From positions 33,170,001 through 33,234,000 of the forward strand of contig CM059449.1 in the NCBI GenBank assembly GCA_030390025.1: DNA of 64,000 bases, written 5' to 3'. The position numbers were made by a program, and so were the translations under genes. Source of the stretch: Squalus acanthias. Its lineage: Eukaryota. The notes beneath the pieces were generated by a model, which did no database searches, was not told where the DNA came from, and saw only the letters and a program-made list of their open reading frames with translations. Below, piece by piece: positions 37,426 to 64,000 of the stretch (positions within the stretch are counted from its first letter, which is position 1; each line of letters begins with the position of its first letter).

Positions 37426-37495
37426 CAGGAATACCAACTATTGCAAGAATAGGATAGTAAATGTTCTCTATCTGTATGATCACCGGCTGTCCCAT
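37426..37495 (-). pseudogene. Orphan exon 1 of a second GPR139-like paralogue (MGQPVIIQIENIYYPILAIVGIP plus G|GTAAG), with its promoter
   Basis: 21 of 23 aa identical to exon 10485-10554. Promoter, 5' UTR and intron homology extend from about 37695 to about 36090. No exon 2 was found downstream on the minus strand. Confidence 0.85.
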
Positions 37496-37809
37496 ATTCG
37501 GAGAGAAGCGACGTTGTCTGTTAGTGTTGTGGACTCGCAGAACTTCTGCTTTCAAAATAAGTTCTTATTTATACCTGAGAGAAACCTCAAGTGACACATG
37601 AGCATTACATAATGTTTAGCGTTAGTTACATTCATTTGAACAAACAGATTGAGGCAAGTCATATTCACTGCTACTGAGCAGGGATATTTTGCAATGATTT
37701 TGCCCGTTGATAGAGGAAGGATTGAAGAAAAAATTTTCGTCATACGTTCGTACATGATCATGAAATTTCTTTAAGACAATTCGATTATTCTCATAGTAGT
37801 GATGACATT

Positions 37810-42337: not shown

Positions 42338-42990
42338 GGGCCTATTTTCCGACCCCACACCCGTAGGGGCCTGGCAAGTGCCGATTTCAGGCATGCGAAG
42401 CGCATGCGCTGAAAACCGGCACTTCCGATCTGTTAAGAATTCTCTTGGAGATCCTGCGCCTGGCCTGGCGAAGGGCCTCTGCGGGTAGAGAGATCCGCTT
42501 TCTGCAGAACCTCCGCCCACTGAAAACCTTTAAACATCTTACGCCTGCAGAAGACCTGCTTTTACCAGCGAAAGAGTTTAATATAGTAAAACAATAAAAA
42601 AAATCATTCATTTTTAAGTTAAAAATAATTTTAAAAAGTTAAGGTTATTTTTAGCCCAGTAGAAAACTTTCATTATTTTTTTCAAAAAATGTAATTTAAT
42701 GCAACTTTAATTAATTTTAAATATGTGATAAAAAAAATGTATTTAATGTTTATTATGTTTTTTACGGTGATCCCCATTCATACCTTTGACAGATCTTGGC
42801 GGAGAGACCTATCAAAAATATGAAGGGGGATTCTCTTCTTTCATTGGTTCGCCATGGCCCTCGTGATCCCAGGGACGCTAACGAACCGCATGCGCCCCAG
42901 GGATACCTGGGCCACTGCGCATTTCGTGGAGGAGATGCCCAAAAGCGAAAGTATCGGGACCTCCGGTTACTGCCCACCAACTGCCCAGCA
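42338..42990 (+). mobile_element. MITE-like element
   Basis: Same architecture as the 33370 and 35101 elements; diverged inverse of 43060-43788. Confidence 0.65.
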
Positions 42991-43059
42991 ATTACATCTG
43001 AACATATTCTGGTTAGTGAAAGCAGGCACAGGAGTCTGTTTTACATCTTAAAAGACGTC

Positions 43060-43788
43060 GGGCCTGAATTTGCGATCGGAGGCTTCGCGCGGGATGCATC
43101 CGATCATCAACTTTTCTACGCATTTACCTGGATGTCCAGGAGATACGGAGGCTTGTGATCCTGGGCCTCTCCTGGTAGAGATGCGAAGAAGCCAACGTAT
43201 CCCAGGGGCTCATGCGGTTCGCAAGCGCCCCTGGGATCATGTGGGCCATCCCAAACAATGAAAGAAGGGAATCCCCATTCATACTTCTAACAGTTCGGTA
43301 CGTACTGAACTGTCATAAGTATGAATGGGGATGACTTAAAAAATACACGAACACGGGAAATACATTTTTAAAAATACTTATATAAAATTAATTAAAATGC
43401 CATATAATTAAATATTTTAAACAAAAATTATTTTTTTTTAAAAGAAATTATATGTTTTAACGAGGCTAAAAATAAACTTACTTTATTGGACAAGGTTTTT
43501 AATGTATAAGTGAGCGATAACATTTTATTTTTCTATTTTTTGAAACTCTTATGCTTATACCAGGCGTAAGAATTCCACGGCCTTTCAGCGGGTGGAAGTT
43601 GGGCAAATAGCGCGACTCTCCACCCACAGAGTCCCATCTCCCAAGGACGCGGAAAATCTGATTCTTGACACATCGCAAGTGCTGGGTTTTAGCGCATGTG
43701 CCCCGCATGCCTAAATTCGGCACTTGCGCTGCCCCTACGGGCGCGCGCACACATCGTTCGTACCCGTGGGTGTCGCAAAATACGGCAC
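43060..43788 (-). mobile_element. MITE-like element, inverted relative to its neighbour
   Basis: GGGCCTGAATTTGCG terminus; GCATGCCTAAATTCGGCACTTGC mirrors GCAAGTGCCGATTTCAGGCATGC. Confidence 0.65.
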
Positions 43789-44654
43789 GATATATGTGTG
43801 TATATATTGTCGGTCGAGTTTAATTTTAATTAATTGGAAAGTGAATATGAAATTGAAATAAAGTGAACATCTATCAGATTTTAGTGACAATTCTGTCCTT
43901 TCAGCTAAAACATGAACAACATAACAAGCAATATAATGCATCGATAACAAGAATATGGATTTATCTATTCACAGTCTAAATGAGGTCTGAATATTTTAAG
44001 CATGAAAGTTAACATTGAATATATGGCTGGGAATCTCTATCTGAAGTTCAACAACATTACTTATACCAGTGTTAGATCTTTACTGCGCATCAGAACAGGA
44101 AGCTGTATAAATAGCGCCTACTAAATTGTGAGTTTGGATGAAGAAATACAGCAAAATGCTGATAAACGAAACAAGTCCAAGTGACATTTTAAGTAAAAGA
44201 AAAGTTTCTAAAAGTTTTTAAGATTTAATTTCAATGGAAGAGGCAGAAAGCAGTTTATGTGGGCGTGGCTTAGTCTTTACACCTTTTGTGGGCGTGTCTT
44301 CCCTTACGCACGTTGCTCACCTGCCCTTTGTGATGTCATACGCTGCGCACAGCTCTGCTGCGCCGAAAGCAAGTTTCCGTTCTGGGCCTACCACAAGGTA
44401 AGTTTGTACTCCGAGATACGCCAACGATCGCAATGTTGGAGCCAGTATTTTCCTTTGAGGCTACACAGGCAATAAAGGATGTGGCGTGGTTTGGATAAAT
44501 AGTTCGGCATCCTCAGGATTCCCACGTCGAGGTGGCAAAGAGAGTGAATGATTTGAGTGAAGGGAAAATCCGCATTAATGATTACACTTTTTTTTGATCG
44601 GATTGCTTTTGATGTCCATAATCGTGATTTATTTATCCATTCTCGCACTTGCAG

Positions 44655-45960
44655 CCAACTTGGTGACAATTGTGATTCTATCCCGTGGAAAGTGCGGCCT
44701 CTCCGAATGCATCACTATTTATCTGGTGGCCATGGCAGCAGACGATCTACTTACTGGTCCTGATATTTGGCGGGGTCCTGTATGAGATGAAAGCAAGTTA
44801 TTTATCGAAATCATTCCTGAAGTACACTCCGGTCTGCAGTCTGAATTTCTTCCTAATTTTTTCTTCTCCTGAATGTGCTGTCTGGTTAACTGTCGCTTTC
44901 ACCTTTGATCGATTTGTCGCCATTTGTTGACAAAGTATAAGAACCCAATATTACACCGAAAAAACTGCGGCAGTGGTTGTAGCAACGATATGGGGGCTAT
45001 GCATTTTGGAAAATGTCCTAATGTACTTTAGTTTACAATCACGCGCAATAATTGACAATATACCGTGGTTCTGTGAACCACCTTAAACATTCACAACCTC
45101 CACCACCGGCGTACCGTGGCTGCAGTGTGTACCATTTATAAGATGCACTGCAGCAACTCACTAAGGCTTCTTCGGCAGCACCTCCCAAACCCGCGACCTC
45201 TTCCACCTAGAAGGACAAGGGCAGCAGGCGGGTGGGAACACCACCACCTCTACTTTCCCCTCCAAGTCACTCACCATCCTGACTTAGAAGTATATCTCCG
45301 ATCCTTCATCGTCGCTGGGTCAAAATCCTGGAACTCCGTCCCTAACAGCACTGTGGGAGTTCCTTCACCACACGGATCGTAGCGGTTCAAGAAGGCGTCT
45401 CAACATTACCTTCTCCAGGGCAATTAGGGATGGGCAATAAATGCTGGCCTTGCCAGCGACGCCCACATTCCATAACACGATTTAAAAAAATCAAACCTCT
45501 ATACTCTACCTGTATGGGTCACATTCTTATGGCTTGACATAGTTTTAATGCCTTTAATTCATTTTCTTTTGATTCTGATATTCAATGGTCTGATCATCAG
45601 GCAAATTCTACTGACAAGTAGAATCAGGAGGGGTCTCCGGAGCAGCGACAGTGAGCCAGAAATGGACAAACGAAGGAAATCCATCGTTTTACTGCTGACC
45701 AAATCCAGCAGTTTTATCCTGTTATGGATGGTAAGTTTTATTCAATATATATATGTGTAAATTATTGTTATTCAATATTTGCACACAGATTACAGTACAG
45801 TATTCCTTTCAGAATCATGGAACAAACTGGATATAAGCTTTAACATTTGAGTTTCTGCACAAATAACATTATTTATGCAGTGTCCCAGACTAAATTCAGA
45901 GAGGAGTAAAAGAATCTGTTTAAATATCCCTTGTCTCTAATTATTAGGTTAGGGAAATAA
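44655..45960 (+). pseudogene. GPR139-like GPCR exon 2, pseudogenised
   Basis: TTGCAG acceptor then ANLVTIVILSRGKCGLS. Lesions: 4-nt frameshift near 44751, TGA at 44928 after DRFVAIC, a LINE insertion at about 45080-45488, and further stops. Confidence 0.92.
45080..45488 (+). mobile_element. 3' terminal fragment of a CR1-like LINE inserted in the GPCR ECL2 coding region
   Basis: HHRRTVAAVCTIYKMHC..SFIVAGSKSWNS; GGCAATAAATGCTGGCC 3' end and A-tail. Confidence 0.85.
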
Positions 45961-45971
45961 TTGAAAAGTCT

Positions 45972-48900
45972 GCGCAGAATTTTCATTGACCCGTGGAGGC
46001 GGGTTTGGAGGCGTGTGGGGGGTTTAAATTGCGAAAACTGGTGGGCGGGCAGAAGCCCGCCTCCATCCGGCCTCCACGCAATTTTCATTACATCGTGTCT
46101 GCTGGTTCCGACTCCGTCCCGCCTCCAAGAGGTGGGATAGGCCAATAAGGCCCTTAACAAGCACTAAATTGCCTCTTTAATGCCATTTTGAAAGGGCTTT
46201 GTGATTTAAAATATGTTTCCACGTGAAGCACGCCTGTGCTGAACACGAATGTGAAACCTGGCGGTAGCACATTTGGATTGCTGACTATCAGCTGCAGCTC
46301 AACCATGAAATAGGTGATGTTATCAGCCATCATTTGCAGTTGGCAGGACTTTGTTGTCTGAGGTCTGGGGGAACTTTTATCTGGCATAACCACAGCTGTG
46401 GAAGTTTGGAGCCTGACACCCATCTCCAGTGTGACCTCCTGGGAAACCCCTCTCGCCACCTTGACTGAGCGCTTCCTCAACTGTGGCATATACCAGAAGC
46501 ATGGGAACCATTTATTTCCTTTCCTCCTGGACATCAGCTTCGGACGAAGACTAGCCGTGGCAGCAGCAGAACCATGAACAACAGCACCACCAGCAGCAGC
46601 AGCATCAACAGGCGTGCCAAGCTGCTCCTCACCCACCTGAAGCTGCACAGGCCAGAAGGCGCCAGCGCGCGACCACATTGCTGCCTGAGATGCAAGGGAC
46701 GCACTTGACCAGATTTGCTTAGCCTGCACAATCAAACACTTTTGCCTCTCACCTTCTTATCAGGCCATCGACAATGGCCAGGAACCTGCGGATTCCTATC
46801 ACTCTGACCACCATACTGACAATTGAAAGTCATCCTAAGCCCTCAATGTGGAAGTCCCATTTGCGAAATGAGAGACGCCACAGCTTCAGCAGTTTTCCAG
46901 CAGAATTTTTAATCACACCAAGTAAGTGCTGTCATTTCAAGATTAAACACAACATTACACACAAGTAACTACCCTTGTGACTACTTGTGCATTATTTTTA
47001 TTTTACGCGTGCTCCTACGTGCTGCTTCCCCTGTGGCTTCAGCAGATGTGAAGGCCCCCTGGTCACTTTCTTGCTGCTCCTGCCTCGACACCTTTGGCGG
47101 GCGTCCTCTGGGGTTGCGAGCCTGTGAGGGCTCGGCAACAGTCTGCTGCTCCTGCAGCTGTGCAGGGGTTGAGACGCCGATCTCAATTGGCTGAGGACTC
47201 TGGTGGGGCTCTGACCGAGAGTTTTGCAGTGGCTTGGTCGTGTGAACGCTTGGAGAGGAGCCCCCGCTTCCTTGTTGTCTGCCACCAACATCCCTCTCAT
47301 GGGTCAGCCCCACCTCAGCGCTGGCAAGTAGATTGAGAGCACCTTGCTGCACATCAGAGGGGCCATGGGGACCCGTATCTGCATTGGAAGTCCTACTCAG
47401 AAGGACTTCCATGACGGTCTGGTTTCTGTGTTCAATAGATGACCATCGCTCCTCAAGAGATGCCAGTCTATTCTGAACAATGACCATGTTTTCTCCACTC
47501 TGGCGACTTATCTCCTCCATAGCCGTAGCCATCCTCTCCTCTACTGTAGCCATCCTTTCCACGGAGGTTGCCATCCTTTCCGTGGTAATGCGTTCATGCT
47601 CCAATGACACCACAAAATCTCTGCTCATGTTTGCTATGGACTCCTCCATTCGCTCCACACTCGCAGCGACCCTGGAAACAAAACCTGCCAGAGACTCCTG
47701 CATCTGTTCCTGGAGTTTCAGCACCGCTGATCTTATGGATGGATCCAGAGGCAGAGGTCGACAAGCAGCTGAGCCGAGCTAGGAGAGTCCTGCACCCTCC
47801 GACTAGGACTCTCCACTGCTGTCCCTGTCTCCACTATCTGCTGATGCTCACTTGTGAGCTGTGATACACCAGCTGACAACACTACTCTATCTCGCGATGT
47901 TCCCTCCGAGGTGAGAGTGTCTGCGCTGGTGCTGGGTGCGCTGAATTCTGCTGACGCGGCGACCTCAGAGGTTGCAGCTCTGAGGAGTCGTGAGGCTCAT
48001 GCTCTTCCTCCTGGATGGTGGGGATGGGTGCTCGCGATGGTCCTGGGGGGGAGTAAAGGAAAGTGTCAGAGATGTGAGTCCAAGGTTACATGCACATTGC
48101 ATATTGCAGATGATCAGAAGTCAGTCTGCTGGAGCATCAGAATCCTTATCAGTGACTCATGAAATGTCAATGAGACAGTTGATGAACTATTCTGTCACCA
48201 GCTTGCTCTGATGCACCCGTCTGTCCGTCCCCCACTTGCACATGCTCCCCCAATCACATGATCTCCAGGACCGCCTCCTCCCAGGGGATGAGCTGGGCTA
48301 CTGAGGGTGGCCCTCCTCCTGTCCTCGCACTTTCCCTCTTATTGTGAGCTTTCTTTTCCTGCAATGAGGGAGACAAGTGGAGTTTGAGTGAGAATGAAGG
48401 AGTGAGTATAGAGAATCTATATCATTGATGGTTAGAAGGAGACAAATTCGGAGTGAGGTGGCAAGATCATGGGCCCTCCTTGTGTGTTGTAAGTTGTTTT
48501 CATCGCAACACAGCGATAGGGAGTGTGAGGGCTGCATAGTCGAATAGTTAGGAGAATGTGACCATACAGAGAGAGGGAATGGGTAAGGGTGCAGTGATAT
48601 CAGTGTCAAGTGGGATGTGGAGGAAGAGGTTGTCAAAGCTGAGTGCTGGTGAGGAGAGGCAATGGGGATCAGAATGAGGGTGATGGGAAATTCATACTCA
48701 CTTTTCCAGTGCGCAGCAGGTCATGAAACCTCTTCCTGCACTGAAGCCAGGTTCTGCGGGTTATGGACAACGAGCTGACCTCCTCTGCCACCTGGATCCA
48801 CACAGCCTTGGTTTGATGGGAAGGCTTCTTCCTCCCTGAAGAAAGGGACAGCACCTCCTTATTAGCTCTGTCTCCCTCAATTAAAGCTTGCAGGGCGACG

Positions 48901-49220
48901 TCATCAAATCGAGGTGCAGACCTACGTCTCTGGCTGGCCATTCTTCCTGCAGGTGCCTCTAACATGCAAAGGCAGAAGATTGGCAGTCTGCAGAGGAAGC
49001 AAGGCTTGTTGCAGACCTTACATGCTGCAGCAATGAAGACATCATCGCAAGCGACTTTCAGACTGGAAAAACTCACTGGCCATGGGTTCCCACACGTTGG
49101 AACTCAATTGGCCAATTATGTTAAAATCGCATCAACCTCCCACATCGATTTAGATTCGGTTGGCTAACACGAAATGCGGATTACACGGCACCAGCCCGCC
49201 CCTGAATCAAAATCCAGCCC
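45972..49220. mobile_element. PIF/Harbinger DNA transposon, non-autonomous (transposase core deleted, Myb/SANT gene decayed)
   Basis: Degenerate TIRs GCGCAGAATTTTCATT and AATCAAAATCCAGCCC; Myb-like gene on the minus strand. Confidence 0.8.
46981..48941 (-). pseudogene. Harbinger Myb/SANT-like DNA-binding protein gene, 3 exons (48941-48702, 48358-48199, 48042-46981)
   Basis: APRFDDVALQALI..W..VAEEV..RTWLQCRKRFHDL; EKKAHNKRESARTGGGPP. In-frame TGA at 48256-48254. Exon 3 length implies a frameshift. C-terminal coiled coil. Confidence 0.82.
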
Positions 49221-50119
49221 ACCAGAGCTGACTACAAAGAATTCAAACTCGCTTCCATCTTAATTATTCAACACGGGCAGCAGCCGATCAGCCGCCTGTT
49301 ATTCGCCCAACACGATGTTATTTTCGGTATAGTTTAATGGAGAGGAAAGTCGGGAGGGTGTGTAATCAGCGGCCGACCTGCTGCCGCCTGTTTTGCGCCG
49401 CTGCTGAAGGTGAATTTCACCCCCGGTCGATAGAACTTTCACCTCTGGCGGGAGCGAGGTCAATGGCGTTTATAGACAACAGGTGATCCAATTCTCCCCA
49501 ATTTGCTCCACGCCTAAGTGGAGAGTTCCCTGCAAAAGGTTTCCTAAATCCCTTTTTACTTGTGTGATATTGTAACTTTCAACTTGACTCTGGCGAAGAT
49601 TTTCATCTTGCCGCAGGGGCCTGAAACCGATGTTGCAGATTGTCCACCGGTGATAGAAACCGTCTTATTCTCATTCCCATTGTAACCACAGGGTTAGCAG
49701 CAGAGTATTACACTGGCTTCGCTCCCTTCAGTTACAGAGGGAGAAGTGGCCTCGGGAACTGCTCCGGACCACTGTGTTGACGATGCTGCTGGTGAAATGT
49801 GAGTGTGTGGACAGGATGGGGCTCGGCTGTGTTTCCAGTAATTGAACAGTGTTTGCAGGCACTGTTTCTACTCACAAGTGGAGATGTGTCTACCTGAGGC
49901 CAATGTTGGAGTCAATTGTACTAATTAGGAAGGTATAAATAATAACAAAACATGTTTTAAAATCCCTGGCGTGCCTTTATTCCGTGCCGCCGTTATGTAA
50001 TGTCTAAAGCGCCAGTTTGCGCAATTATAGATGTGATTTGACAATGTTCCTTCAATGTTAAACAAGTTAGTAATATTTTGATAAAGTGACTGAAATATAA
50101 GTCAGGGGTGAAATGTTTA

Positions 50120-51116
50120 TGCAAATTGAGTTGTTTCAGTAATAAAGCAATTGCACTTAGATGAATACATAGAAAGACATATATCCAAATTTGCCGACGA
50201 CACAAAGATAGGTGAAATTGTATGCATTGTTGATGGAAGCATAAAATTACAAAGGGATATCGACAGATTAAGTGAACGGCCAAAACTGTGGCAAATGGAT
50301 TTTATTGTAGGTAAATGTGAGCTCATTCACTTTTGACCTAAAAAGGATAGATCAGGGTACTTTCTAAATAGTGAATGCTACAAACAGTGGAGGTCCAAAG
50401 AGACTTTGGCGTCCAGGTACGTAGATCATTAACATGTCATCAACAGTTACAGACAATAATCTAAAAGGCTAATGGGATGCTGGCCTTTATACCTAGAGGG
50501 CTAAAATACAAGGGGTAGAAGTTATGCTGCAGCTATACAAAACCCTAGTTAGACCACACCTGGAGTACTGTGAGCAGTTCTGGGCCACACACCTTAGGAA
50601 CCACTTATTGGCCTTGCAGGGAGTGCAGTATAGGTTTACCAGAATGATACCCGGACTTCAAGGGTTAAGTTACGAGGAGAGATTACACAAATTAGGTTTG
50701 TATTCCCTAGAATTTAGAAGGTTAAGAGATGATCTGATCGAAGTTTTCAAGGTATTAAGTGATACAGATAGGGTATATAGAGAAAAACTATTTCCACTGG
50801 TTGGGAATTCTAGGACTAGGGGGCATAATCTAAAAAATAGAGCCAGATCTTTCAGCAGTGAAATTAGGAATCACTTATACACACAAAGGCTGGTAGAAGT
50901 TTGGAACACTGTGCCGCAAACGGCAATTGATGCAAGAGTAATTGTTAATATTAAATCGTAGCTTGATAGCTTTCTGTTAACCACAGGTATTAAGAGATAT
51001 GGGTCAAAGGTGGGTATATGGAGTTAGGTCACAGATCAGCCAGGAACTCATTGAATGGCGGAGCAGGCTCCAGGGGCTAAATGGCCTCCTCCAATTCCTA
51101 TGTTCATATGTTCCTA
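50120..51116 (+). mobile_element. 5'-truncated CR1 LINE
   Basis: ISKFADDTK and RPHLEYC motifs; (TATGTTCC)n tail. Confidence 0.93.
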
Positions 51117-51489
51117 GGATTCACGATGATTAGTTCAGTGTGTTCTTGGATCCAATGCAAGACTCGCGTTTGACCCTCTCAGGTTCTGGTTAAACACCGT
51201 TGTAATCTAGGGAGTGAAATCCATATGTTAGACAATCCCGAGATGAAGGTGCAGAGCACAGTATAGAGAATCAAGTGACTTGTTCATTCTCTTTTCATGG
51301 TTCTTCCCCTTATAGGTAGCTCAGAGGCAGTTAGTTTAGAGCACAGGAGTAGCGGGCCTAAAGAGCGGTCGATTCTCACTACCTTCCCCTGGAGGCCGGT
51401 AGCCTTATCGTTCCGTTAATGTTGTGCAGGTTCCAGTCAGTTCCACAGGCGATGAAACCGGAGAGACCTGTTTGCCCTCCGGACTGCCC

Positions 51490-51628
51490 GGCTGCCAAGT
51501 CGCTGTCGCCCAATTTGCCTCCAAGTTGCTCTCTCCCATTTAGTTGCCAAGTCGCTCTCTCCCGTTTTGCTGCCAAGTCGCTATCGCTCAATTTGCTACC
51601 AAGTGGCTCTCTCCCATTTTGCTGCCAG
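51490..51628. repeat. 26-bp tandem repeat (GCTGCCAAGTCGCTCTCTCCCATTTT), about 5 copies
   Basis: Direct reading. Confidence 0.85.
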
Positions 51629-52414
51629 GGCACTCCCTCCCGATTTGAACTACTGCGCAAGACAAATTTATACCCCAATGGAGGTCATTTTAATTGTTGG
51701 CGTTAATGTAAAATGGACGATATCGGGTCGGGTATCTGTTATACACCTCTCCCGATTGTCCTTTCCTTGAGATCAATGGGAAGGAAAGTTGGGAGAGTTG
51801 TGTAACGGGTCGCTGATCCGATGACGCCTGTTTTACACTATCTCCTAATCTGAAAATGACACCCAATGACTCTCCACCCTGTCCTGCCCCTATGAAGGTG
51901 CAATGACCACAGTAGGGACGGACAATATTTGCCTTAATGGGGCACTCCGGGAAATGAAATCTGACGGAAGGTGTTTAACACCTGGGAGTTCCAGTCTGCT
52001 TTGTGATCTTCTGATTATATTTCCACCTTTTATCTTAATGCCACTCGGAAACCATTTACATCACAACATTAGATTTGGTGCGAAGGGATATTCTGGAGGA
52101 GGCAGTCTCCCTCTACTTCACCTGGTAGCCAGGTGGGGTCCTGAGTCTGGATTTACACTAAAACATCTGGCGTTAAGCCAAACCATCCCTCAGGGATCCT
52201 CAGGCTGCAGTATGAATGTGGCCTGTGGGAAGATAAAGTACTCGCTACAATACTGAATCAGGAAGGTTATTAAACTTGCATTGTCACTGAGACAATGAGT
52301 GTGGATCTGTGTCCTGTCAGCCCCCTTTCATTCACCACTAGGCGTTAAGGTTCGCCTTTAAAACGTTCCAGAGGAAATTACCCTTTCCATGGACTGTGAT
52401 GCTGACCTCCTTTC

Positions 52415-52488
52415 TTAAACCTGGGTTTTTTTGAATTGCAGGAGTTGGTGGTGCTGCTTAAGGAAGTATTTGAAATGTCTGCCTTGTT
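52415..52488 (-). CDS. Probable cytoplasmic-tail exon of the MHC class I-like gene (phase 1: EQGRHFKYFLKQHHQLLQFKKTQV*)
   Basis: Strong TTTCTTTTCAG acceptor 1.5 kb downstream of the TM exon; the reading frame is ambiguous. Confidence 0.45.
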
Positions 52489-52899
52489 CTGAAAAGAAAC
52501 ATGTTCAGAGAGAACGCTTGTAATAATACGATGGTATTGGTAATAAAGGTTTTTTAGCAAGTATGCTTCCGTCTTAACATATCAATCAAACATAAATTCA
52601 TGTTGATGCTGATGGTGTTACCATGGGGAAAGTTTTCATGTGTGGGCCACCTGTTACAAAACTTAATGGGGTGAAATTGGGCTCAGGTGGTAGCGCCAAA
52701 TGGCGATAGCGAATCACCAGCCAGTTACACACCTACCCCATGGGCTTTTCTATTGACTTCAATTAAATGACAGCCGATTCACTAGTGGCTATTTTGTGTT
52801 ATCGCTCAATTTCACCCGCTAAATTTGTTCATAAAGAACTGGATTTTAATTTCACTGCACTTGGGGCACATGCTTATCGAATAAAGTAGAAGTTACAAC

Positions 52900-53515
52900 A
52901 TGGAAAGAGATGCTTTGGCCGAACCAGTGCGTATCGGCATTTACTCTACACACCAGTAAATATTACGAATCAGATTTACCCACCCTGTTCTCATATCCCT
53001 TAAACCCCTTTTCCCTTTGTCCACCTTCTCAATCTAATCTTAAATGTTGAGATTGTTTCTGCCTCAACATCTATCACTAGAAGTGGATTCCACAGCCTCA
53101 CAACGCTCTGTGAAAAGAATCGTCTCCTACCCTCTGTTCTAAATCTCTACCATTTAACCTGGTATCTATAACCCCTCATTCTTGACCCTCAACTACTGGA
53201 CACAGTATGCTTCTATCTACCCTGAGCCATCCTTCCATCATTTTAAACACTTGTATTATATCACCCGTAATATGCATTTTTCTAATAAAAATGCGCATTT
53301 TCCAAGTCTTTCCTTGTATTTGTGTTTCCTTCTACCGGGCAGCATCCTAGTGAATCCACCGTGTAGCTTCTCTGAAGCTCAATATCCCCCCTATCGCGTG
53401 AAATTCTATACTGCACAGTGTTCTAACTCCGGTCTTAATGTTTTATAGAGGCTCATATTTACTTCTTGGCTGTTATGTTCTGTACCTCGTGTGATTAAAC
53501 TTAGAGTTCCATTAG
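52900..53515 (-). mobile_element. Old CR1 3' fragment
   Basis: Degenerate RPELEHC..RWIH-like segment and CR1 3' UTR on the minus strand. Confidence 0.65.
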
Positions 53516-53577
53516 TAACTTTCCCTCGATAAAATTCCAGTTGTTCTTACAGAAGTTAACAAATTAACCAATTTAAT

Positions 53578-53870
53578 CCCACTCCAGAGACGTGAGCAGT
53601 AAAATCTAGACTGACACACCAGTGCAGTGCTGAGGGACAGCTGCACTGTCGGAGGTGCTGTCTTTAGATGGGGCGTTAAATCGAGACCCAATCTGCCCTC
53701 TCAGGTGGATGTAAAAGATCTCTGTGCGCAACTTGGCTGCCGCGTTTCCTACATTACAACAGTGACTACACTTCTAAAGAAAGCACTTCATTGTTTGTAA
53801 AGCGCTTTGGGACGTCCTGAGGTCGTGAAAGGCGCGCGATATAAATGCAAGATTTTCTTTTTTTTTCTTT
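53578..53870 (+). mobile_element. DeuSINE-like SINE (SacSINE1/AmnSINE1 type), partial
   Basis: CAGTGCAGTGCTGAGGGA..GCACTGTCGGAGGTGC, CTGCCCTCTCAGGTGGATGTAAAAGATC, and an L2-type tail TGTAAAGCGCTTTGGG..ATATAAATGCAAG. Confidence 0.75.
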
Positions 53871-53983
53871 ATAACAGATATTTAAAATTCAAAATATAAT
53901 CCTGGGGCCGGCCAAAAGATTTTCTGTAAAGCCGCTGTGTCATACTTTTACAAACATGACTGCAGCATATTCTCTCGACTTAC

Positions 53984-54091
53984 CTCTTCGTTTTCTCCTC
54001 CACATATAGATTAAAACTATAACGAAAGCCAGCGACAGCAGTACACACACGACAATCAGCCCCACATGCTTGTCTTTCTCTACTTTTCCAT
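53984..54091 (-). CDS. MHC class I-like heavy chain, connecting peptide/TM exon (DGKVEKDKHVGLIVVCVLLSLAFVIVLIYMWRRKRR)
   Basis: TTTTTCAG acceptor and G|GTAAGT donor, phase 1-1; hydrophobic span followed by a basic stop-transfer sequence. Confidence 0.88.
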
Positions 54092-55079
54092 CTGAAAAAT
54101 ATTAGCAAGGTTTGTATAATTATATGTGCGGATTGACATTTTTATATATAATCCGTGGAAACCTATGGCCCTGCTCATGGTAAGTAGGATGATGCGCTGT
54201 TTTCTAAGAACAGTATCCCCACACCATATAATGCACAATGTAGTATTTCACTAAGGTGGAGCCAGGTTTCTTTAAAACCACAAAAGTTCATTTTTTGTGA
54301 ATAAACACAGGTTCTAGTCAACGAGAGGTGGTCAGGCTGTAAAGGTGTCTGGGTAGGTGGGGGAGGAGCAATGGCTGTGAAGAGTGAAGCATGGTTTCTA
54401 GACTGATCGGGGCTGGGCCAGCGATAGGAATGTGCAGCTGGGAGGACAATGGAAAAGGTTTATGGTCGTGGTGCCCAGCGAGACAGAGGGAAAGCCAGCT
54501 GTCCCCTCCCCCGCAACCCCCCATGGATCGCTGTGTAAGGGGAGCCATGTAGGAAACTAGCAGAGGCCTGTGTCTGCGGGACTGGTGAAAGGGGCAATAT
54601 GAGGGGTAAGTACTGGCAGTTGAATCGATGATGTCACTGTGCCAGCTCCCAGGGCTGGGGGATCGAGCTTCTGACCGTCCCCGCAGCTCCGTGTGATGAG
54701 AGGGAGCTCAAGGTGCAAGACTGCCACTCATGAGAATTGTAAATAAGCAAATTATCTACATAAAAGTTTAAATTTAATAAAGATAGTTAAATGTTTACCT
54801 TCCTTTACTTAACGATAGCAACATGACTGTTGTCTCCAAAACCCTGACTGCTCCACAGTGACACTCAGTGGTCCCATTCTGTAACTGCATACAGACTCCG
54901 TTTCTTTAATTCGAACTCTCAATATACTGGAAAGGCAGCTTTGTGGCATCGTTCAACAATAGGCGGCACCCTATCATTTACAATCTGTCACCTAATGTTG
55001 TTGGATTGGAGTTGCGCTCTGGAAACTTGACTAGACTCAACATTTTCAAAACATTCAGATAGAAATCGCGAGAGAACTT

Positions 55080-55575
55080 TATAGAGAGATANNNNNNNNN
55101 NNNNNNNNNNNNNNNNNNNNNNNNNNNNNNNNNNNNNNNNNNNNNNNNNNNNNNNNNNNNNNNNNNNNNNNNNNNNNNNNNNNNNNNNNNNNNNNNNNNN
55201 NNNNNNNNNNNNNNNNNNNNNNNNNNNNNNNNNNNNNNNGAGCGAGNNNNNNNNNNNNNNNNNNNNNNNNNNNNNNNNNNNNNNNNNNNNNNNNNNNNNN
55301 NNNNNNNNNNNNNNNNNNNNNNNNNNNNNNNNNNNNNNNNNNNNNNNNNNNNNNNNNNNNNNNNNNNNNNNNNNNNNNNNNNNNNNNNNNNNNNNNNNNN
55401 NNNNNNNNNNNNNNNNNNNNNNNNNNNNNNNNNNNNNNNNNNNNNNNNNNNNNNNNNNNNNNNNNNNNNNNNNNNNNNNNNCAGACAGACAGAGAGAGAG
55501 AGACACAGAGAGAGACAGCGAGAGAGACAGACAGAGAGACAGAGAGATAGACAGTGAGACAGACAGAAAGACAGA
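55080..55575. repeat. (AG/AC)n compound microsatellite containing N-runs (55092-55481)
   Basis: Flanks are AGAG/AGAC repeats; the Ns are unresolved or masked bases. Confidence 0.85.
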
Positions 55576-56934
55576 TATGATTATATGAAACTGTGTATAT
55601 GCAGCTTATAAAACTGATTGTAATGAACCGATTGTCTAATTGAAGGTTTTTTATTAAACAACTGGGACCTGCACAGGTTGGGCCACAACATCTGGAAATT
55701 GCCCTCAGCAGAGGATCAGCGCAGTAACCGACCAGAAATACATTTCCAGATCGTTAGGATCATCCTACCTGTTCCCCTGAGGGAGGCACCTTTCCATGGA
55801 AAGACCTGAATGAGCAGCACCGTTATCTATTAAACAATTTGTGGTAGATTTTCACCGCGCCGCTCTGGTGTGAGCCTTCTGCTGTGGTTCAGCCGCCTGT
55901 CACACAAACTGCCCGCTTTTCATTCCCATTGGAGGCTTCTCCGGTTTTACACCCGGGCGGCAGGTTGGAAATCTACCCCGCTGTGTCTAAACCAATAGTA
56001 GGAGGTTCCCCTGGAGACATTTGGTCACCCTGTTAATCACCAAAAGCAATTTCTAGGCTCATTTCCTGGGGCTACATCCCCCCCCCCCCGCCTCCCCCAG
56101 CTGTCGCAACCTCCATTCGTGCTGCAGATTCTTGCTTTCTGGGCAAAGCCCAGCGTCCCCACCTTCCCTGCCTGCAGCTCCCAGTGCACTTCGGCCCATC
56201 CCCGCCTCAGGAGCCCAGCCTCAGACTCACCCTTACCGCTAGGCCGCATTATTTTCACCCCTCCACCCACTGCACTGCATTTTAATGACCTTTCCTCACA
56301 ACACATCCCCTCTCCTCCTCTATTATCCCAAAGTGACCCGTCACCTCCTTCCCCACCTGAACAAAGAGACAAGAGAAACAAAAACACACTGAAACTGCGA
56401 GGGAAATAGCTCAGCACAGAGCAAAAGTTCCAGCTCAGAAACCGAGCAACTCCATCACCACAGTGAAAGGGAAAAACAATGAGAAAGCAGAAACAAAATG
56501 TGAAGCAACAGCAAGTCGGGCAAATAAAGAGTCTGATGTCTGAGAGTGGGTGGTGAATGTAGATTAATCCATTCTCTAACCCAGATAGACTGTGAAAAGG
56601 GATTCATTTGTTATCTAACTCTGAGGCCGTGCGGTGTGTGTGGGGTGTTGGTGCAGAGTGGAGATAAACAGTAAGAAGCAATGGGAAAGATATAGAGAGA
56701 AAGCAAGTGTGTGAGAAGCACACAAGGAGGGGTGGGTGCAGATTATGGAAGAGTCAGAAGATAACTGAAATGGACTAAAAGAGAGAGAAAGAATGAGGAA
56801 CAGTCACAGACAGTCTGCAGTATAGAGATAACAAAAGTGTTGTCTGATGTATAAAAAGAGAGAAAGAGCAAGACAGGTGTGGGTGATTGTTGCTGTTATT
56901 GATGGATGTTCTGTATCGCTGCTCATGTCCTTAC

Positions 56935-57201
56935 CCCAGGAGACTGTCTTCCCACCCGGCAAGCTGCTGTGCTCAATATGACAGGAGTATTGTTTCCCAT
57001 CATACGGATCAAATTCAAGGGTTGTTGTTAGTTGATACGTCCCATCTTCATTGGGTAATAAGCCAGTAGATTTGGTCTCGGGGGCATGTTCTCCATTCTT
57101 CAACCAGGTCACATTGATGGAATGTGGATAAAATCCAGTCGCAATGCAGTGGAGAAACCAACGATCAGCAGCCCTGGCAATAACTGAGACTTCAGGGGAA
57201 A
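56935..57201 (-). CDS. MHC class I-like alpha3 (Ig C1) exon
   Basis: VSPEVSV..LHCIATGFYPHSINVTWLKNG..LLPNEDGTYQ..YSCHIEHSSL; 267 nt with AG/GT boundaries, phase 1-1. Confidence 0.95.
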
Positions 57202-57423
57202 CTACATGATAGAACGACAGTTATTTTCAAATTCAATAAAAGGCGCACTTTTCACAATAGACTGAATGAAATCATTTTAATTTGTGTTACTAGTGTAAAG
57301 CAGGTGATATCGGATCGGCCTGTTAAAGCAGAATGGGGAGTGTATAACGGAAGCTGATCCAATATCGCCAGTTCTACACTGTCACCAAACTTTAAAATTA
57401 CCCCCGGGTTGTTCTGAACTTAC

Positions 57424-57699
57424 CTTTTCTGGTGAGTGATGCATTTCCAAGTGAATAGTATGTCCTCCATAAATCCACACAATCCTTTTCTAACAAGCTC
57501 TTGAAATAAAGGTTCATCTTTGTTTCCTTATCCCATTTCACTTTGAAGGTCTGAGCTACTGGATCATGTACAGTCCAAAACAATTTGTCTTTATCAAAAC
57601 TAAATGCGTATCTTCCATCATAAGCAAACTTCAAAATCCCTACACTAGGATTGGCATCATTCAGTTCACAGCCAAACAGTCCTTGAATGTAATGAGTAC
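57424..57699 (-). CDS. MHC class I-like alpha2 exon
   Basis: THYIQGLFGCEL..AYDG..KVKWD..LEKDCVDLWRTY; canonical 276 nt, phase 1-1, with the C101/C164 pair. Confidence 0.95.
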
Positions 57700-58036
57700 C
57701 TAGAACAGTAATTGAATCCATCAATAGCTACATAATTATCTCATCTATTCACACCAAACATGAGAATTTCAGTTATTTTTTAGTCACTCTTTCCAGGTAG
57801 AAATGGCGTTTAGTGTCTAAAACAAGGTTCATCACACAGCGACATATAATTTACAGCACAGAAAGAGAACAATTGGCACCAAAGTTAAACGGCAGCTGCC
57901 TGCTGTAATATTCTTGCTATATTAGGTGCTCAGAACTGCATGAAAAACCCCAACAGTGGCCTAATCAATGTCTTCTGCAAGTCAACATCAAGTCCCTGAT
58001 GTTATACTCAATGCCCATTGAACAAAATACCGACGA

Positions 58037-58255
58037 GGTGAAATTGGTCTTTCCCAGTAGTGCGAAATGGACTCATATCGAATCAGCACCAGTTTTACAC
58101 TCCAATATTGTTCTTCTATTAACTTCAAAGATGTAAAATGGGCTGTCAATTCACCATGGCCCCAATGGAAGGGAAGATTGGGCGGAGTGTGTAATGGGTG
58201 ACCGATCCAATATCGCACATTTTACACTGTCACCAACAGTTAAAATTACCCCTCA
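58037..58255. mobile_element. Representative of a short palindromic MITE family (other copies at about 36400, 36655, 41350, 49300, 51700, 52668, 57290, 59918, 60395, 61585 and 63000)
   Basis: GGGGTAA(A/T)TT ... GTGTAAAATGGG ... TTTTACAC ... AATTACCCC arms with an often central TTCCATTGACTTCAATGGAA-like motif. Confidence 0.65.
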
Positions 58256-58624
58256 CATAAGCAACACCACAGGAAATTGAGTAAAAAATTTTAAAATCTT
58301 ACATCTGTGTGCAGTTCCTGTCCACAAAAGCATACTTCCTGTTATCATATTTCTATTACATTTGTGTTAACAATTCCCTTTTTAAATTACTATGTACACC
58401 TTTATAATGGAAGCTGCCAGCGTAAGCTCGTCATGCTGTAATTACAGCCTCCCACCGGTGGTGGCACTTTCGGACTTTTCTTTGCATTTCCCAGATTAAC
58501 TGCTGTGCTCCAACCAATTCTACGTCTCCGCTTCCCAAATTGAATAAATGTTGGTATTTAACTGTAAATCTATCTATATTATATTAGAAATGTTATGTAC
58601 TACCTGTCCACACATCCTACTGCG

Positions 58625-59180
58625 TATTGTTTATGTCCCCTTATTTAAGGAGGGATATAGTTGCATTGGAGGCAGTTCAGAGAAGGTTCACTAGGTTGAT
58701 TCCTGGGATGGAAATGTTGTCGTATGAGGAAAGGTTGAGCAGGTTGGGCCTATACTCATTGGAGTTTAAAAGAATGTCAGGTGATCTTATTGTAACATAT
58801 AAGATTTACAGGGAGTTGGACAGGGTTGATGCTGAGAGGATGTTTCCCCTCGTCAGGACATCTCGAACTAGGGGACACAGTCTCAGAATAAGGGGTCGCC
58901 CATTTAAGATGGAGATGAGGAGGAATTTCTTCTCTCAGAGGGTCGTGAGTCTTTGAAATTCTTTACCCCAGAGAGCATTGGAAGCTGAGTCATTGAATAT
59001 ATTCAAGGCTGAGATAGACAGATTTTGAGCAACAGGGGAGTCAAGGATCACGGGGAGCGGGCAGGAAAGTGGAGTTGAGGCCCAAATCGGATCAACCATG
59101 ATCTCATTAAATGGCAGAGCAGGCTCGAGGGGCCGAATGGCCTGTTCCTACTCCTATTTCTTATTTTCTTAAGTTCTTAC
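58625..59180 (+). mobile_element. 5'-truncated CR1 in the class I intron
   Basis: LEAVQRRFTRLIPG..RRNFFSQRVV; TTCTTA tail. Confidence 0.92.
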
Positions 59181-59237
59181 TTCCTCTTGTCACATTTTTT
59201 ATCAACCTTTTCCCATTATCAATTCCTCTGAATTCAT

Positions 59238-59580
59238 GTTCAAAATCATGAAGGAGTTGGATAGAGTGAATATGGAGAGAGGTCGGTAACCAGAGGACAC
59301 AGCTTTAAGGTAATTGGAAAAAGTACCAGACGTGATATGAGGATTTATTTTATGCGGTGAGTTGTTGTGATCTGGAATGCATTACCTGAGAGGGTGCTGG
59401 AAGCAGATTCAATAGTGACTTTCAAAAGGGAATTGGACAAATACTTGAAAGGGAAACGTTGCAGGGCTATGGGGAAAGGGAAGGGGAGTGGATCTAATTG
59501 GATAGCTTTCAAAGACCCGGCACAGGCACGATGGGCCGAATGGCCTCTTTCTGTGCTGTATTATTCTATGATTCTATATG
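59238..59580 (+). mobile_element. Short CR1 3' fragment
   Basis: IWNALPE..FKRELDKYL; TTCTATGATTCTAT tail. Confidence 0.85.
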
Positions 59581-60762
59581 TCAACATTTGAAATGGGAGT
59601 TGCCGATGTAAAGTCAGCATGTTGCAATTGTACCCTCGCTCCAGTGGTGGCGCTGTAATGCCTCAGTTTTTTTGTTGCCCAACTCTTCAGCCTATACTTC
59701 TGGAAAATTCCCGTGTTTTCAATCAACTCTAGTTCGCACCTTCACAATTGTCCAGCAATGTTCTTACTTAACTATAAATAACATACCAGAATATTTGCCA
59801 ATGCTGTCAAAATACATGCCAGAATGTATGACTTTAAATTAGGGACTGAATTATGTTTGCACAGCATAGGCTAACATTATATGTCCTCCAACCTTGTTAC
59901 AATGGACTTGACTCCATGGGGGTAATTTTGACTTTGGCTGAGAGTGTAAAATGGGCGAGATTGGCTCGTCCGCCAATTTTGCAACCCGCCTGATTTTCAT
60001 ATCCATAGAGGTCAACGGAAGGGAAAATCAGACAGGGAGTATATTGGGTAGTCAGTTCGATATCGCTCATTTTACACTATTGCCCAAATATAAAATTTAC
60101 TCCGAATGAATAGAAAACTGCGGGCAATGCATTATGCTTTTCTGATAAGCCACCTGCGGGATATAAGACGGCATTGTAGCCTCAAACTTACACATATACA
60201 TTAAATATCAAATATGTGCTCACCTATATAACTGAGCAAATGCAATGATATGAATAATAATCCTTCAATTCAATATTACCAATATAATTCATCAAACATA
60301 ATATTGTCAGTATGATTCAATAAATGTGTTATTTCCAATGTCATTCAATAAATGTGTTACTAATATCATTCATTAAAAGTAATGTTACCATGAATGGGGG
60401 GTTAATTTTAAATTGTGGTTATAGTGTAAAGCGGACAATATTGGGTCAGTGGACTGTTATAAACATCGTTCAATTGAAAGGGAATCCGAGCGAGCTGCAG
60501 AACGGGCGGTCGGTCCAATATTGGCCACTTTACTTATTTGCTGAAGAGTTAAAAATTACGCCAATAAACATAATATGATTAGTAAAGTGTAAAATAACAG
60601 CAAAAAAATGAAATAAATATAAGATTACAAATATCATAAATTAAATGTAATAATACAAATGTCATTCAATAAACACGGGTGATGGTGGGGAGGGGCGGAT
60701 TTTTAACTTATCCCCATTTGAAATATGACCAGTGCTGAATTGGCCGCCCCATTTACACCATG

Positions 60763-61213
60763 TCCGAGCGTGGAGGAGTCCGTGTTCAATTTATATATCG
60801 AATGTGAGAGGTTGCGGCCCCTCTTCCATTATCTGAAGGGGTTGCTCCTCGATTTTTGGCTGCATTTCACTCCCACGCTTCTGATCTTTGGTCACCCGGT
60901 GCGGAGGGGATCGGGCAGATCGGGGGACATCCTCGTAGGACTGCTCCTGGGCCAGGCCAAAGTGGCGGTCGATGGGGTCGTTCGGCCCGACTTCCTGCCT
61001 TTCTTCCGCGGCCACGTTCGCGCCCGGGTGGCCCTGGAGCTGGAGCCCACGGTGTCTGCCGGCACGCTTGTGATCTTCCACGATCGGTGGATACCGCAGG
61101 GACTGGAGTGCATCTTCACCACCAGTAACCACATTTTAATTTAAGTTGTTTGGTTTCCTTTAATGTTTTTTTTTATTTACACTTTATTTGTTCCAAGTGT
61201 GCACAAAAAAGAG
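60763..61213 (+). mobile_element. 3' end of a Tx1/L1-clade LINE with a 9-bp TSD (TACACCATG)
   Basis: EESVFNLYIECERL..LLIFG..LLLGQAKVA..FHDRW resembles the Tx1 ORF2 C-terminus. TSD at 60754-60762 and 61214-61222. Confidence 0.75.
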
Positions 61214-61790
61214 TACACCATGCTCGATTTTCAGAAAATCGATTAAGGTGTAAAACGACAGCTGATTCACAGGCGCCCGTATTTCGCCCGTTTTCCACCA
61301 CATCTCATTTTATTTATCGACCGAGGTGTAAAACAAAAGCTGAATCACAGGCGCCCGGATTTTATCTGGTGATGAAAGTGAAATTCAACTTCAGCAGGGT
61401 TGCTGAATGGGTGGCAGCGGAAAAGCCACCTGTTATAGACCTCGGCCCATTTTACTGTGAAGTGAATGTAAAGGAAATTCAGGCAGCATGTATAAAGGGC
61501 GGCCTCGCTGATACTGCCCATTTTACACCCACCAACACTGGATTTAACCCCCATTATGAACAATATCATTCATTGGGGTTAATGGTACATTCCAGAGAGA
61601 TTGTAAAATGGGTGATTTTCAATTAGTTGCCTATTATACACCTCGCCTAATGTTCCTTTCTGTTGAAGTCAATGGAAGGGAAAATCAGGCGGATGTATAT
61701 CAGGCGGTTCGATATCACTCATGTTACACTACCCCCCAAGTTTAAATGACCCCTGTCGTTCGCTGCATTTATTCAAACGAATACACTCAC

Positions 61791-62051
61791 TTGATGTTTG
61801 GTTATTCTGCTGCAACCATCTATCAACCTGTCCCTTGATGAGTCCGTGGAAACCAGCTTGAGTGATTGTGTATTCGTCCCAGTAACTCTTCTCAAATGCT
61901 TTCGCCATCCATTGCTGTCTTGGAACAGTTATTTTCATATTTTGGTCGTAATAGTCTATCTCCCAGCCATCCAAAAGCCCCATAATACTATACTCCGGCA
62001 GATCAACACTCCCATGGTTCAGGGTGTAGTAATATAGCAGAGAGTGAGACT
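61791..62051 (-). CDS. MHC class I-like alpha1 exon
   Basis: ESHSLLYYYT..LPEY..LLDG.EIDYYD..PRQQWM..YWDEYT..NNQTS; 261 nt, CTAG acceptor and A|GTGAGT donor. Confidence 0.95.
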
Positions 62052-63912
62052 CTAGGACATAATACAAAAAAATCATTGCCGTATCAAATATCAGAAATGT
62101 CAGTTTGCTAAAGAAATAGGGACAAAATAATGTATTCAGAAAAATGCGAGAAAACTGAATATTTTGCCATCGCTCCCGTGTTAAACTATTGCAGAGAAGG
62201 CAAAATGACCCTTAATATTAAATCTTATCCTTTACAAGAATATTCCCATTTTCGAAATAAATGAAAAATGTGATGGTTCGAATAAATTACATCAGCTCAG
62301 CTCATTTGTAAATCGTAACTTTAAGATTTTAGTCCCACGTCTGACCTGGGGATTCTTTGGTGAATTAGTGAGGAAGTGCACCCAGAATTATGGTACTAAA
62401 CCATGCAGAATCCAGCCCTGGTGCGTGCGCAGTGATCTGCTCCCTGCCCGCTACTTGTAGCGACATTAAAATTGGCCTCAGATTTACTGAGCAAAAGAGG
62501 GGAAAAAGCAGCTTGAATATATGCAAATTGGGGTTAAAGGAAGTTATCAAGTCCTTAACAACATTTTCCTCTCTGCCCACATTGTTACCGCCAGTTTCTG
62601 ATCATGCCAGCAAAGTGGAACCAATCGGGAGGCAGATATTAAAGGAATCCTCAGTTGGTCTCAAATAAAATGCTGGAATATTTGGGAGATATGTTTCTTC
62701 TATTATGTTGTGGGATTTCACTACTTAATCCATTTACAATGCTTGTACTGGCTGCTGAATATTTTGAACTGTTAATGGTCTTCTGGTAATTCCACTCTGG
62801 CATGTAGTGAAGGGTCTGTTGTGATTGGAGGAGAGCCATGGGAAATGGGGAGGAAAGGATTAGTAGTGCAGCGGCTACTCTCAGGCGGTGCGAGGCTGTA
62901 CAGACCGAAAGAGAGATGTGAAGCCGAGTCTGACCTTGGCAGTCCTGGTAAGGTCATTAAGATTCTTCCTGCAATGCAGACAGATTCATGGGGAAATGGA
63001 GTATAAATGTGTCTTGGGCGGCATAGCAGAATGGGCGATAGCGAATCAACAGCCAACTTGGCCCGCCGTCTGAATTTGTATTGGATTGAAGTCAATGGAA
63101 AAGAGAATTGGGCGATAGATCAAAACAGGCTGTCAATTGTCATCAGCCGCTTCCGGATACCAAGCACTTTATACCCAATGTTGCTGCCATTGGCTTGCTC
63201 ATCCACCTCTCGCCATTACTGCTGACTAATTTGACGGACCTATCGTTACACATTAGAGGAGACGAGGTTCTCAATACCGGTGGTAATTTGCTCTACAAGC
63301 GCTTCCACCGCTGCCCAGAGAATCGGAGGACACCTGACCATGTCATGCAATCTGCTGCTCCAATAAGTCGCTCTCCATTAACCATCCTTGAAAAGTGAAC
63401 TTTCCCTTTAAGGGACTGGAGACTGCCTTTAAATCAAAAGGCCTTGGCGCTCATTTCCTGTAAATGAAGCCGGGTCACGAAAATTATACTGTCCCCACCA
63501 ACTTTATCTTTCGCATGGGCGGACAATAGCTTGCCCTCCCACCAGAACTATCCCGGAATCTCCAGGAATTAGAGATTAATCTCCTGGACACAGCTGCGAG
63601 AAACTCGGGAAAAAGATAACAGCAACAGCACAACAATCACAATTATAACAATATTGGAGCTGGGGACAAAAGGCGGGTTGACTGGGCTGGAGGTCATGTG
63701 ATGAAAGCTCCTGGAATGAGTCCAACCAGAGTTGGCAACACGTCGGTCTGAATCACCGCACAAATCCCCATCTATGATTGAGGAACATTACTTCAGACCT
63801 GCAGTAAATCACCGGCACCTTTCTTAAGCGTCCAGCGCCACACGAGCCCCTATCGTCACCTCACCATGTTAACCAACACAGGAGCTCCCCCAGGGCATCC
63901 GCAAGGTTCGAA

Positions 63913-64000
63913 GCAGTCAGTGTAACCCGGGCTAAGCAAGAGGGCAGTCGGTTTATACGGGACTAAATAAGAGGGCAGTCGTTGTAACCCAGACGAAACA
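63913..64000. repeat. Start of a tandem repeat of about 31 bp (GCAGTCGGTGTAACCCGGGCTAAATAAGAGG-like)
   Basis: About 3 diverged copies running off the window end. Confidence 0.6.

Follow-up and report, generated by a model that had tools for sequence, protein, structure and literature searches.

The 64,000-nt window of the Squalus acanthias genome analyzed here (GCA_030390025.1, contig CM059449.1, positions 33,170,001-33,234,000 of the forward strand) harbors an MHC class I gene whose antigen-binding groove departs from the classical type, which raises the question to which lineage the gene belongs and what its product holds. The gene is located on the minus strand. Its alpha1 exon (62051-61791; 261 nt, phase 1/1) encodes the N86 sequon and a private W31, the alpha2 exon (57699-57424; 276 nt) a second N-glycan sequon and a private F132, and the alpha3 C1-set exon (57201-56935; 267 nt) a third sequon. 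They are followed by a 108-nt exon for the connecting peptide, the transmembrane (TM) helix and the basic stop-transfer stretch (54091-53984) and by the last coding exon (51206-51190), which finishes an Asp codon and ends with the tail motif YNGV and a stop. The probable 3' UTR (51189-50300) contains repeats and a first AATAAA at 50306, and its 3' end is approximate. The gene hence exceeds the interval 53984..62051 of an earlier sequence-only reading, because it also takes in the tail exon and, past the end of the window, two candidate leader exons. The alpha1, alpha2, alpha3 and TM exons show AG/GT ends, phase 1 and zero stops, and public contigs splice there, so that the open core exons and splice phases of that reading were correctly called. 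A Pfam search recovered PF00129 for alpha2 (E 6.8e-15) and PF07654 for alpha3 (E 1.1e-19), but no match for alpha1 alone. A four-domain form using an upstream alpha1-like exon is excluded for the four of about 24 such exons that were measured, since each comprises 260 nt and is out of frame.

By its sequence, the window gene is a new member of a named family, the known shark non-classical class I lineage UGA. The best PDB match of alpha1, alpha2 and alpha3 is 9CH4, entitled "Crystal structure of shark nonclassical MHC CLASS I, UGA", with 72-74% identity per domain (62/86, 67/91 and 64/87 residues, counted by eye). The E values are 5e-41 for alpha1 (next match 4.8e-12), 1.5e-43 for alpha2 (next match 2.4e-14) and 8.8e-42 for alpha3. 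A structure search with the model of the Heterodontus ortholog P0001 retrieved 9CH4 with a Z of 27.0, followed by 23.8 for the next entry, and stretches of 9CH4 are identical to "Gcirratum_UGA" from the supplement of PMC10751288. In a phylogenetic tree of 50 rows, which left out nurse shark UGA itself and CD1, the window copy is nested within a 32-row clade with a support of 100/100 together with 17 shark and ray proteins. One of these 17 is the skate protein P0009, which matches "Lerinacea_UGA". A groove signature of F70, W81, G97, F99, Y122, M152, Y155, F156, L159 and L167, derived here from the 17 orthologs and not taken from a paper, is found with each residue common to 14-17 of them.

The sequence-only reading had placed the gene either in a described lineage or in a new one; the first option proved right, the second did not. 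An undescribed non-classical lineage could be defended on the grounds that UGA was identified here via 9CH4 and supplement sequences rather than the authors' primary definition, but it is hardly credible given the identity to a PDB entry titled UGA and the maximally supported clade with proteins matching named UGA queries; barring a mislabelled 9CH4, it is ruled out. Nurse shark UFA (8GM8, identified by eye against "Gcirratum_UFA"), the other shark class Ib molecule termed CD1-like, is the second-best alpha1 match, with an E of 4.8e-12 over only 62 residues, and absent from the best 60 alpha2 matches. Its alpha2 domain lacks the K146/W147 pair (by eye), whereas UGA keeps it, and membership in UFA was rejected because alpha1 and alpha2 are both closest to 9CH4. 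Classical shark UAA (6LUP and the UAA-like gene of the same genome, G000:C3751) has the same exon layout, fold, C101-C164 pair and N86 sequon, but its identity is just 31-35%. The phylogeny, which had been suggested as a check, shows no clustering with the UAA-like gene and places the window copy outside its clade.

Classical class I molecules have nine peptide-terminus residues at positions 7, 59, 84, 123, 143, 146, 147, 159 and 171, of which Y7, Y59, K146, W147 and Y171 bind the peptide ends, and D122 contacts beta2-microglobulin. In HLA-A2 numbering, assigned by visual inspection of the aligned queries in PMC10751288, the window copy retains Y7, Y59 and N86 in alpha1 and C101, K146, W147, C164 and Y171 in alpha2. 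Alterations comprise Q84 in alpha1 and Y122, A123, F143, L159 and L167 in alpha2, and aromatic residues are present with W81 in the former and Y155, F156 and W168 in the latter. This alignment bears out the complete list of kept, lost and aromatic residues that had been drawn up before. Five of the nine classical anchors are shared with the UAA-like gene, which has all nine; those at 84, 123, 143 and 159 are lost, as is W167. The anchor count and the separate clade support the earlier claim of a non-classical molecule and, together with a groove pN/pS of 0.35 among paralogs, set the gene apart from classical class Ia.

The groove had also been described as remodelled and hydrophobic. The remodelling is evident, but the hydrophobicity is weakly shown: the mean Kyte-Doolittle value over 45 groove positions is 0.26 in the window copy versus 0.23 in the UAA-like gene, with 1.37 versus 0.93 for the floor subset and 0.85 versus 0.48 for the inner-helix subset. 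Such residue counts are crude and barely separate this groove from a classical-like one. Nor is the remodelling peculiar to this gene, as L159 and F156 are found in all 17 UGA orthologs and W81, G97 (alpha2 exon), Y155 and Y122 in 16 of them. The near-invariant lining set comprises F70, W81, G97, F99, L114, M152, F156 and L159, and hardly any variation is seen among sharks and rays at G69, F70, G76, Q77, M152, Y155 and F156. Nurse shark UGA is identical to the window copy at 34 of the 45 groove positions (by eye) and has likewise lost Y159, W167, T143 and D122. Differences are W31, F132, W168, Y63, A123 and Y118 in the window copy versus C, V, L, C, I and L in 9CH4. The leucine at position 168 of the solved structure indicates that W168 is dispensable for the UGA fold. 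Position 31 is a cysteine in the other copies and most orthologs, and its tryptophan is private to the window copy.

Transcripts, whose lack had been named as an argument against the earlier reading, were found as spliced contigs in public runs that are presumed, not annotated, to be RNA. These contigs splice at exactly the called joints of the ectodomain exons and of the TM and tail exons. One contig of 795 nt links the TM exon to both alpha3 and the tail exon, the joint 51206/53984 is present in the runs X10, X13 and X20, and contigs run on from the tail exon into the probable 3' UTR. The presumed RNA run X10 yielded exon-restricted spliced contigs with a depth of about 500-1100. They carry all four covered private bases of the window copy and show 0 differences from it over 138, 128 and 226 nt, while all other comparable copies differ. 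The F132 stretch was also found in one run labelled with another organism. The single-cell runs X21-X23, two searched with the ectodomain exons and one with the TM and tail exons, yielded next to no exon reads and not a single joint, and repeat reads dominate in them. The proposal that the window copy is a duplicate without expression or an error of the assembly could draw on the near-identity of some neighboring copies (1-4 differences in 801 nt), on the four broken copies among 16 and on the two private replacements C31W and V132F. It is nevertheless extremely improbable, as the X10 contigs agree with the window copy at its private sites and the copy groups are 28-62 nt apart and too numerous for two alleles; the spliced contigs bearing private bases rule out a pseudogene or artefact for this copy.

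The only unusual point of this gene is its copy number. Contig C26 harbors 16 UGA loci (alpha1 count) within 5.6 Mb, six of them fully intact, and six more alpha1 loci are located on small contigs. UGA has been described as "single- or low-copy" (PMC12562908), so that about 16 loci side by side contrast with the one or few reported; three UGA proteins each were found in sawshark and sawfish. Along with a GPCR pseudogene, the window copy lies in one arm (36232..64000, no strand assigned) of an inverted segmental duplication. Its mirror counterpart occupies G000:C26:33.30-33.33 Mb, with 88-97.5% identity between the arms. Recent segmental duplication of such a UGA-plus-GPCR unit probably gave rise to the 16 loci. 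A divergent, unnamed sister lineage at C26:30.70 Mb may deserve a separate look. The contigs C812 and C3328 carry UGA fragments alongside UBA-like class I genes; a search for class II genes had no match anywhere and is hence uninformative on MHC linkage.

Among 11 C26 copies, pN/pS amounts to 0.30 across all codons and to 0.35 when the groove codons are taken alone. The copies are under purifying selection and the groove evolves no faster; diversification of the groove among paralogs was not seen. The paralogs are predicted to vary at the C-terminal end, with the tails YNGV and YNFV, a read-through tail, tyrosine-less tails and two TM-less forms. One close paralog has lost the TM exon in frame and is predicted to be secreted. 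At least three UGA types are expressed according to spliced contigs from the presumed RNA runs. Given that purifying selection maintains one and the same groove in the paralogs, the expansion most likely alters dose or tissue pattern and not the range of ligands.

In a 2025 review, UFA and UGA have been stated to bind lipids comparable to CD1d ligands on the basis of crystal structures and mass spectrometry (PMC12562908), in one sentence whose source is a personal communication. A literature search for a primary paper on UGA found none, and the title of 9CH4 mentions no ligand. The lipid ligand guessed at by the sequence-only reading fits this second-hand report. In our view, the window gene is a transcribed UGA member that quite probably binds beta2-microglobulin and accommodates lipid instead of peptide. 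The heavy chain would fold with beta2-microglobulin in the ER, and its groove would accept an acyl chain, with floor space likely provided by G97. UGA would then reach the surface and, like CD1 and MR1, cycle through endosomes by means of its tyrosine motif. Innate-like T cells or an NK-type receptor would probably meet a surface that hardly varies. CD1 and MR1 undergo tyrosine-based, AP-2-dependent sorting (PMC13100496), and the C-terminal YNGV of the window copy is a tyrosine-based YxxPhi-type motif; tails of the form YNxV/I are present in 5 of 14 UGA orthologs inspected.

CD1 of mammals, birds and reptiles resembles UGA in its reported class of lipid ligands and in a short tail with a tyrosine-based sorting motif, which most CD1 isoforms have and which is present here as a motif only. 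However, no CD1 chain is found among the 55 alpha1 matches or the best 60 alpha2 matches, where MR1, chicken BF2 and ZAG rank higher, and unlike CD1 the window copy retains the classical-type Y7, Y59, K146, W147 and Y171. Chicken YF1 (3P73, 9EB3, 9EB4) and human ZAG (1ZAG, 6R2U) are class I folds that hold acyl chains according to their entry titles. With their classical-like backbones they may provide a working model for lipid in the UGA groove, but they represent separate lineages with only 28-31% identity to P0001. The five retained residues and a groove hydrophobicity near that of the UAA-like gene are observations that run against a lipid ligand, and the change of D122, the classical beta2-microglobulin contact, to Y also runs against the favored reading.

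A narrow set of hydrophobic peptides, bound in the manner of HLA-E or Qa-1, would agree with the retention of 5/9 anchors and the C101-C164 bond and with a hydrophobicity close to that of the UAA-like gene. Yet Y159, W167, E63, R84 and T143 are all substituted, F143 and W81 leave little room at the C-terminal end of the groove, and the reported ligands of the lineage are lipids (PMC12562908), which makes a peptide binder very unlikely.

UGA might also not present antigen to T cells at all. It could carry lipids or serve a receptor as a fixed ligand, like ZAG, which is secreted, HFE and FcRn, with a groove that is closed or constitutively filled. The near-invariance of groove and helix residues across sharks and rays, a search that found no published T-cell data on UGA and the TM-less paralog are in line with this scenario, but the conserved membrane anchor and tyrosine tail are expected of a recycling presenter and a review terms UGA CD1-like (PMC12562908), so that we regard it as unlikely. 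For the lipid-presenting molecule that we favor, one may tentatively imagine, as a rather doubtful extension, that a single CD1-like presenter gave rise to about ten protein-coding paralogs with one groove and differing tail, anchor and tissue pattern, and hence evolved independently in the way of the compartment-specialised CD1a-e family of mammals.

The gene is ordinary for sharks and belongs to a named lineage for which a structure has been solved. It touches on the question whether the presentation of lipids dates back to the origin of the jawed vertebrates, to which it adds one ortholog and not new evidence. The series of 16 loci could show whether variants of tail and anchor change where a lipid presenter samples.

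The MHC class I gene on the minus strand of the window (53984..62051, hereafter the window copy) belongs, almost beyond doubt, to the UGA lineage of shark non-classical class I genes. Nurse shark UGA (PDB 9CH4, chain 9ch4_A) is the top PDB match of each of its three domains, with the next match far behind, and identities counted by eye are 62/86 (alpha1), 67/91 (alpha2) and 64/87 (alpha3). The structure search was run with the predicted structure (pLDDT 79) of the Heterodontus ortholog P0001 in place of the window protein and retrieved the PDB title “Crystal structure of shark nonclassical MHC CLASS I, UGA” (released 2026-03-18). The stretches of 9CH4 in the alignments have the same reading as the query “Gcirratum_UGA” in the supplement of PMC10751288; a primary paper on UGA was not found in our literature searches. 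Database searches provided 17 orthologs from sharks and rays. The phylogenetic tree (n=50) comprised 15 same-genome copies with three full in-frame exons, five further class I genes from this genome and 30 database proteins out of 36; P0010, P0019, P0027, P0031, P0032 and P0036 were excluded because they are fused, incomplete or redundant. The window copy is located within a clade of 32 rows with 100/100 support, outside of which fall the UAA-like, UBA-like and C3663-type genes, and its nearest named proteins are those of the sawshark Pristiophorus (78–93% by domain). Clustering with classical UAA, which the sequence-only reading had named, together with high allelic polymorphism, as evidence against its proposal, was looked for and not seen, as the UAA-like gene of the same genome is placed in a separate clade. 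The 9CH4 matches and the maximally supported clade identify the lineage as UGA, in line with the first of the two options of this reading, a described cartilaginous-fish lineage or a new one.

The four core exons, all on the minus strand, are open with AG/GT ends and phase 1, as had been read from the sequence: alpha1 (62051-61791), alpha2 (57699-57424; Pfam MHC_I), alpha3 (57201-56935; Pfam C1-set) and the transmembrane (TM) exon (54091-53984). A Pfam search with alpha1 alone gave no match. The last coding exon (51206-51190, minus strand) had been overlooked; it ends the protein with YNGV. Two in-frame leader exons of 52 nt each lie outside the window on contig C26 of the same genome (33234497-33234446 and 33255723-33255672). 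UGA units have two different in-frame leader exons each, both open in most, and the use of alternative first exons is suggested by database models of other sharks, which start with one or the other type. The distal leader is 23.6 kb from alpha1 in the window copy versus 4.3 kb in its neighbour. The alpha3–TM intron contains a GA-type simple repeat (55040-55580) with N runs at 55092-55239 and 55247-55481, which leaves the gene unaffected.

In HLA-A2 numbering, based on the alignment files that accompany PMC10751288, every entry in the earlier list of kept and replaced groove residues is as stated. The changes are traits of the UGA lineage: L159, F156, F99, L114, W133 and W147 are common to all 17 orthologs, W81, G97, Y122, Y155, Q77 and I74 occur in 16, and L167 and M152 in 15. 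The window copy retains five of nine classical anchors versus nine of nine in the UAA-like gene, and it is clear that hydrogen-bonding residues for the peptide ends have been lost and that the groove lining is fixed. The residue changes of the proposed “remodelled, hydrophobic groove” are real, but hydrophobicity is only modestly higher by residue counts, with 0.26 versus 0.23 in the UAA-like gene over 45 groove positions, 1.37 versus 0.93 for the floor and 0.85 versus 0.48 for the inward helix positions.

The window copy itself, with W31 and F132, is transcribed, since the pieces listed from X10, a public run that is RNA by guess, cover four of the five private bases in its alpha1 and alpha2 without any difference. 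X10 consists of contigs, and depth is limited to exons and repeats. Spliced contigs, whose absence would have spoken against the proposal of the sequence-only reading, join 61791-57699, 57424-57201, alpha3–TM and 53984-51206 at a depth of about 500-1100, a poor gauge of expression level in contigs. The TM exon in X10 is of the window type only (498), whereas X13 contains, besides this type (62), one with five differences (43) that corresponds, compared by eye, to the group at 33.31, 33.62 and 33.78 Mb on C26; X20 harbors the latter type (30) together with one that has a 3-nt insertion (13) and resembles that at 34.49 Mb on C26. Exon joints were absent from three single-cell runs.

We consider the following mechanism quite probable. 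The UGA heavy chain would associate with beta2m and hold a lipid, a ligand suggested for the window copy by its ortholog, reach the cell surface and recycle via endosomes by its YNGV motif, and its near-invariant surface would be shown to innate-like lymphocytes. Sorting of CD1 and MR1 is described as tyrosine- and AP-2-dependent in PMC13100496.

A review (PMC12562908) describes the shark UBA and UEA families as expanded and UDA, UFA and UGA as single-copy. In Squalus acanthias, 16 UGA loci are located on C26 (32.75-38.37 Mb) and six on six small contigs, some of the latter probably being alternative haplotypes; the few copies that are almost identical could reflect duplication in the assembly. 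Of the 16 C26 loci, six are intact, each having a tyrosine tail and one or two open leaders, one is interrupted by a gap, three have an open ectodomain and a shifted, tyrosine-less tail, two are without a usable TM exon and four are broken. Eleven C26 copies with three full exons fall into four groups, with 1-62 differences in 801 nt between pairs of copies, and their pN/pS (0.30 overall, 0.35 groove, 0.24 alpha3) documents purifying selection. The expansions look independent between lineages, because the copies of this genome form their own clade (94/89) apart from the proteins of sawshark and sawfish (three each). The closest paralog (C26:32752820-32761530; nine nt differences) exhibits W147C and a 2.3 kb deletion of the TM exon, with no assembly gap there; splicing of its alpha3 in frame to the tail could yield a secreted form.

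Besides UGA, the unit that was duplicated carries rhodopsin-family GPCR genes and, upstream, a dead alpha1 exon; the window copy and its neighbour form an inverted pair. This degenerate exon (51–61% identity) occurs at C26:33262941-33263153 and at about 24 comparable sites; the four that were measured have a length of 260 nt and are out of frame. It is probably what remains of an older tandem copy that the duplications took with them. The window harbors an open GPCR gene (11823-12815, first exon near 10485-10571, plus strand; PF00001, E 2.7e-20), a broken copy with stops (44606-45951, plus strand) and a lone first exon (37552-37409, minus strand). They are of the type adjoining UGA in skate, and the skate gene model P0010 fuses UGA to such a GPCR, which indicates that this neighbourhood is old. 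A Myb/SANT-like domain (PF13873, E 6e-07) and a coiled-coil-like region are encoded by open frames at 46157-49103 (minus strand), which probably belong to a Harbinger-type transposon.

A divergent class I gene with three open exons (C26:30699750-30710390) shares 49/40/49% identity with the domains of the window copy. It groups with sawfish P0020 and skate P0021 (100/100), and this group is sister to UGA (99/100), which places its origin before the shark–ray split. It retains two of nine anchors, and its groove hydrophobicity score of 0.91 is above that of the window copy; a TM exon was not found within the 30 kb examined. Comparison by eye with the named queries supplied with PMC10751288 gave no match, and the gene may hence represent an unnamed lineage. 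Other non-classical class I genes are present on contig C3663, two of which form a separate clade in the tree with proteins lacking the alpha2 cysteines, and contig C2098 contains further candidate matches. Of these observations, the expansion of UGA and its divergent sister gene merit further attention.
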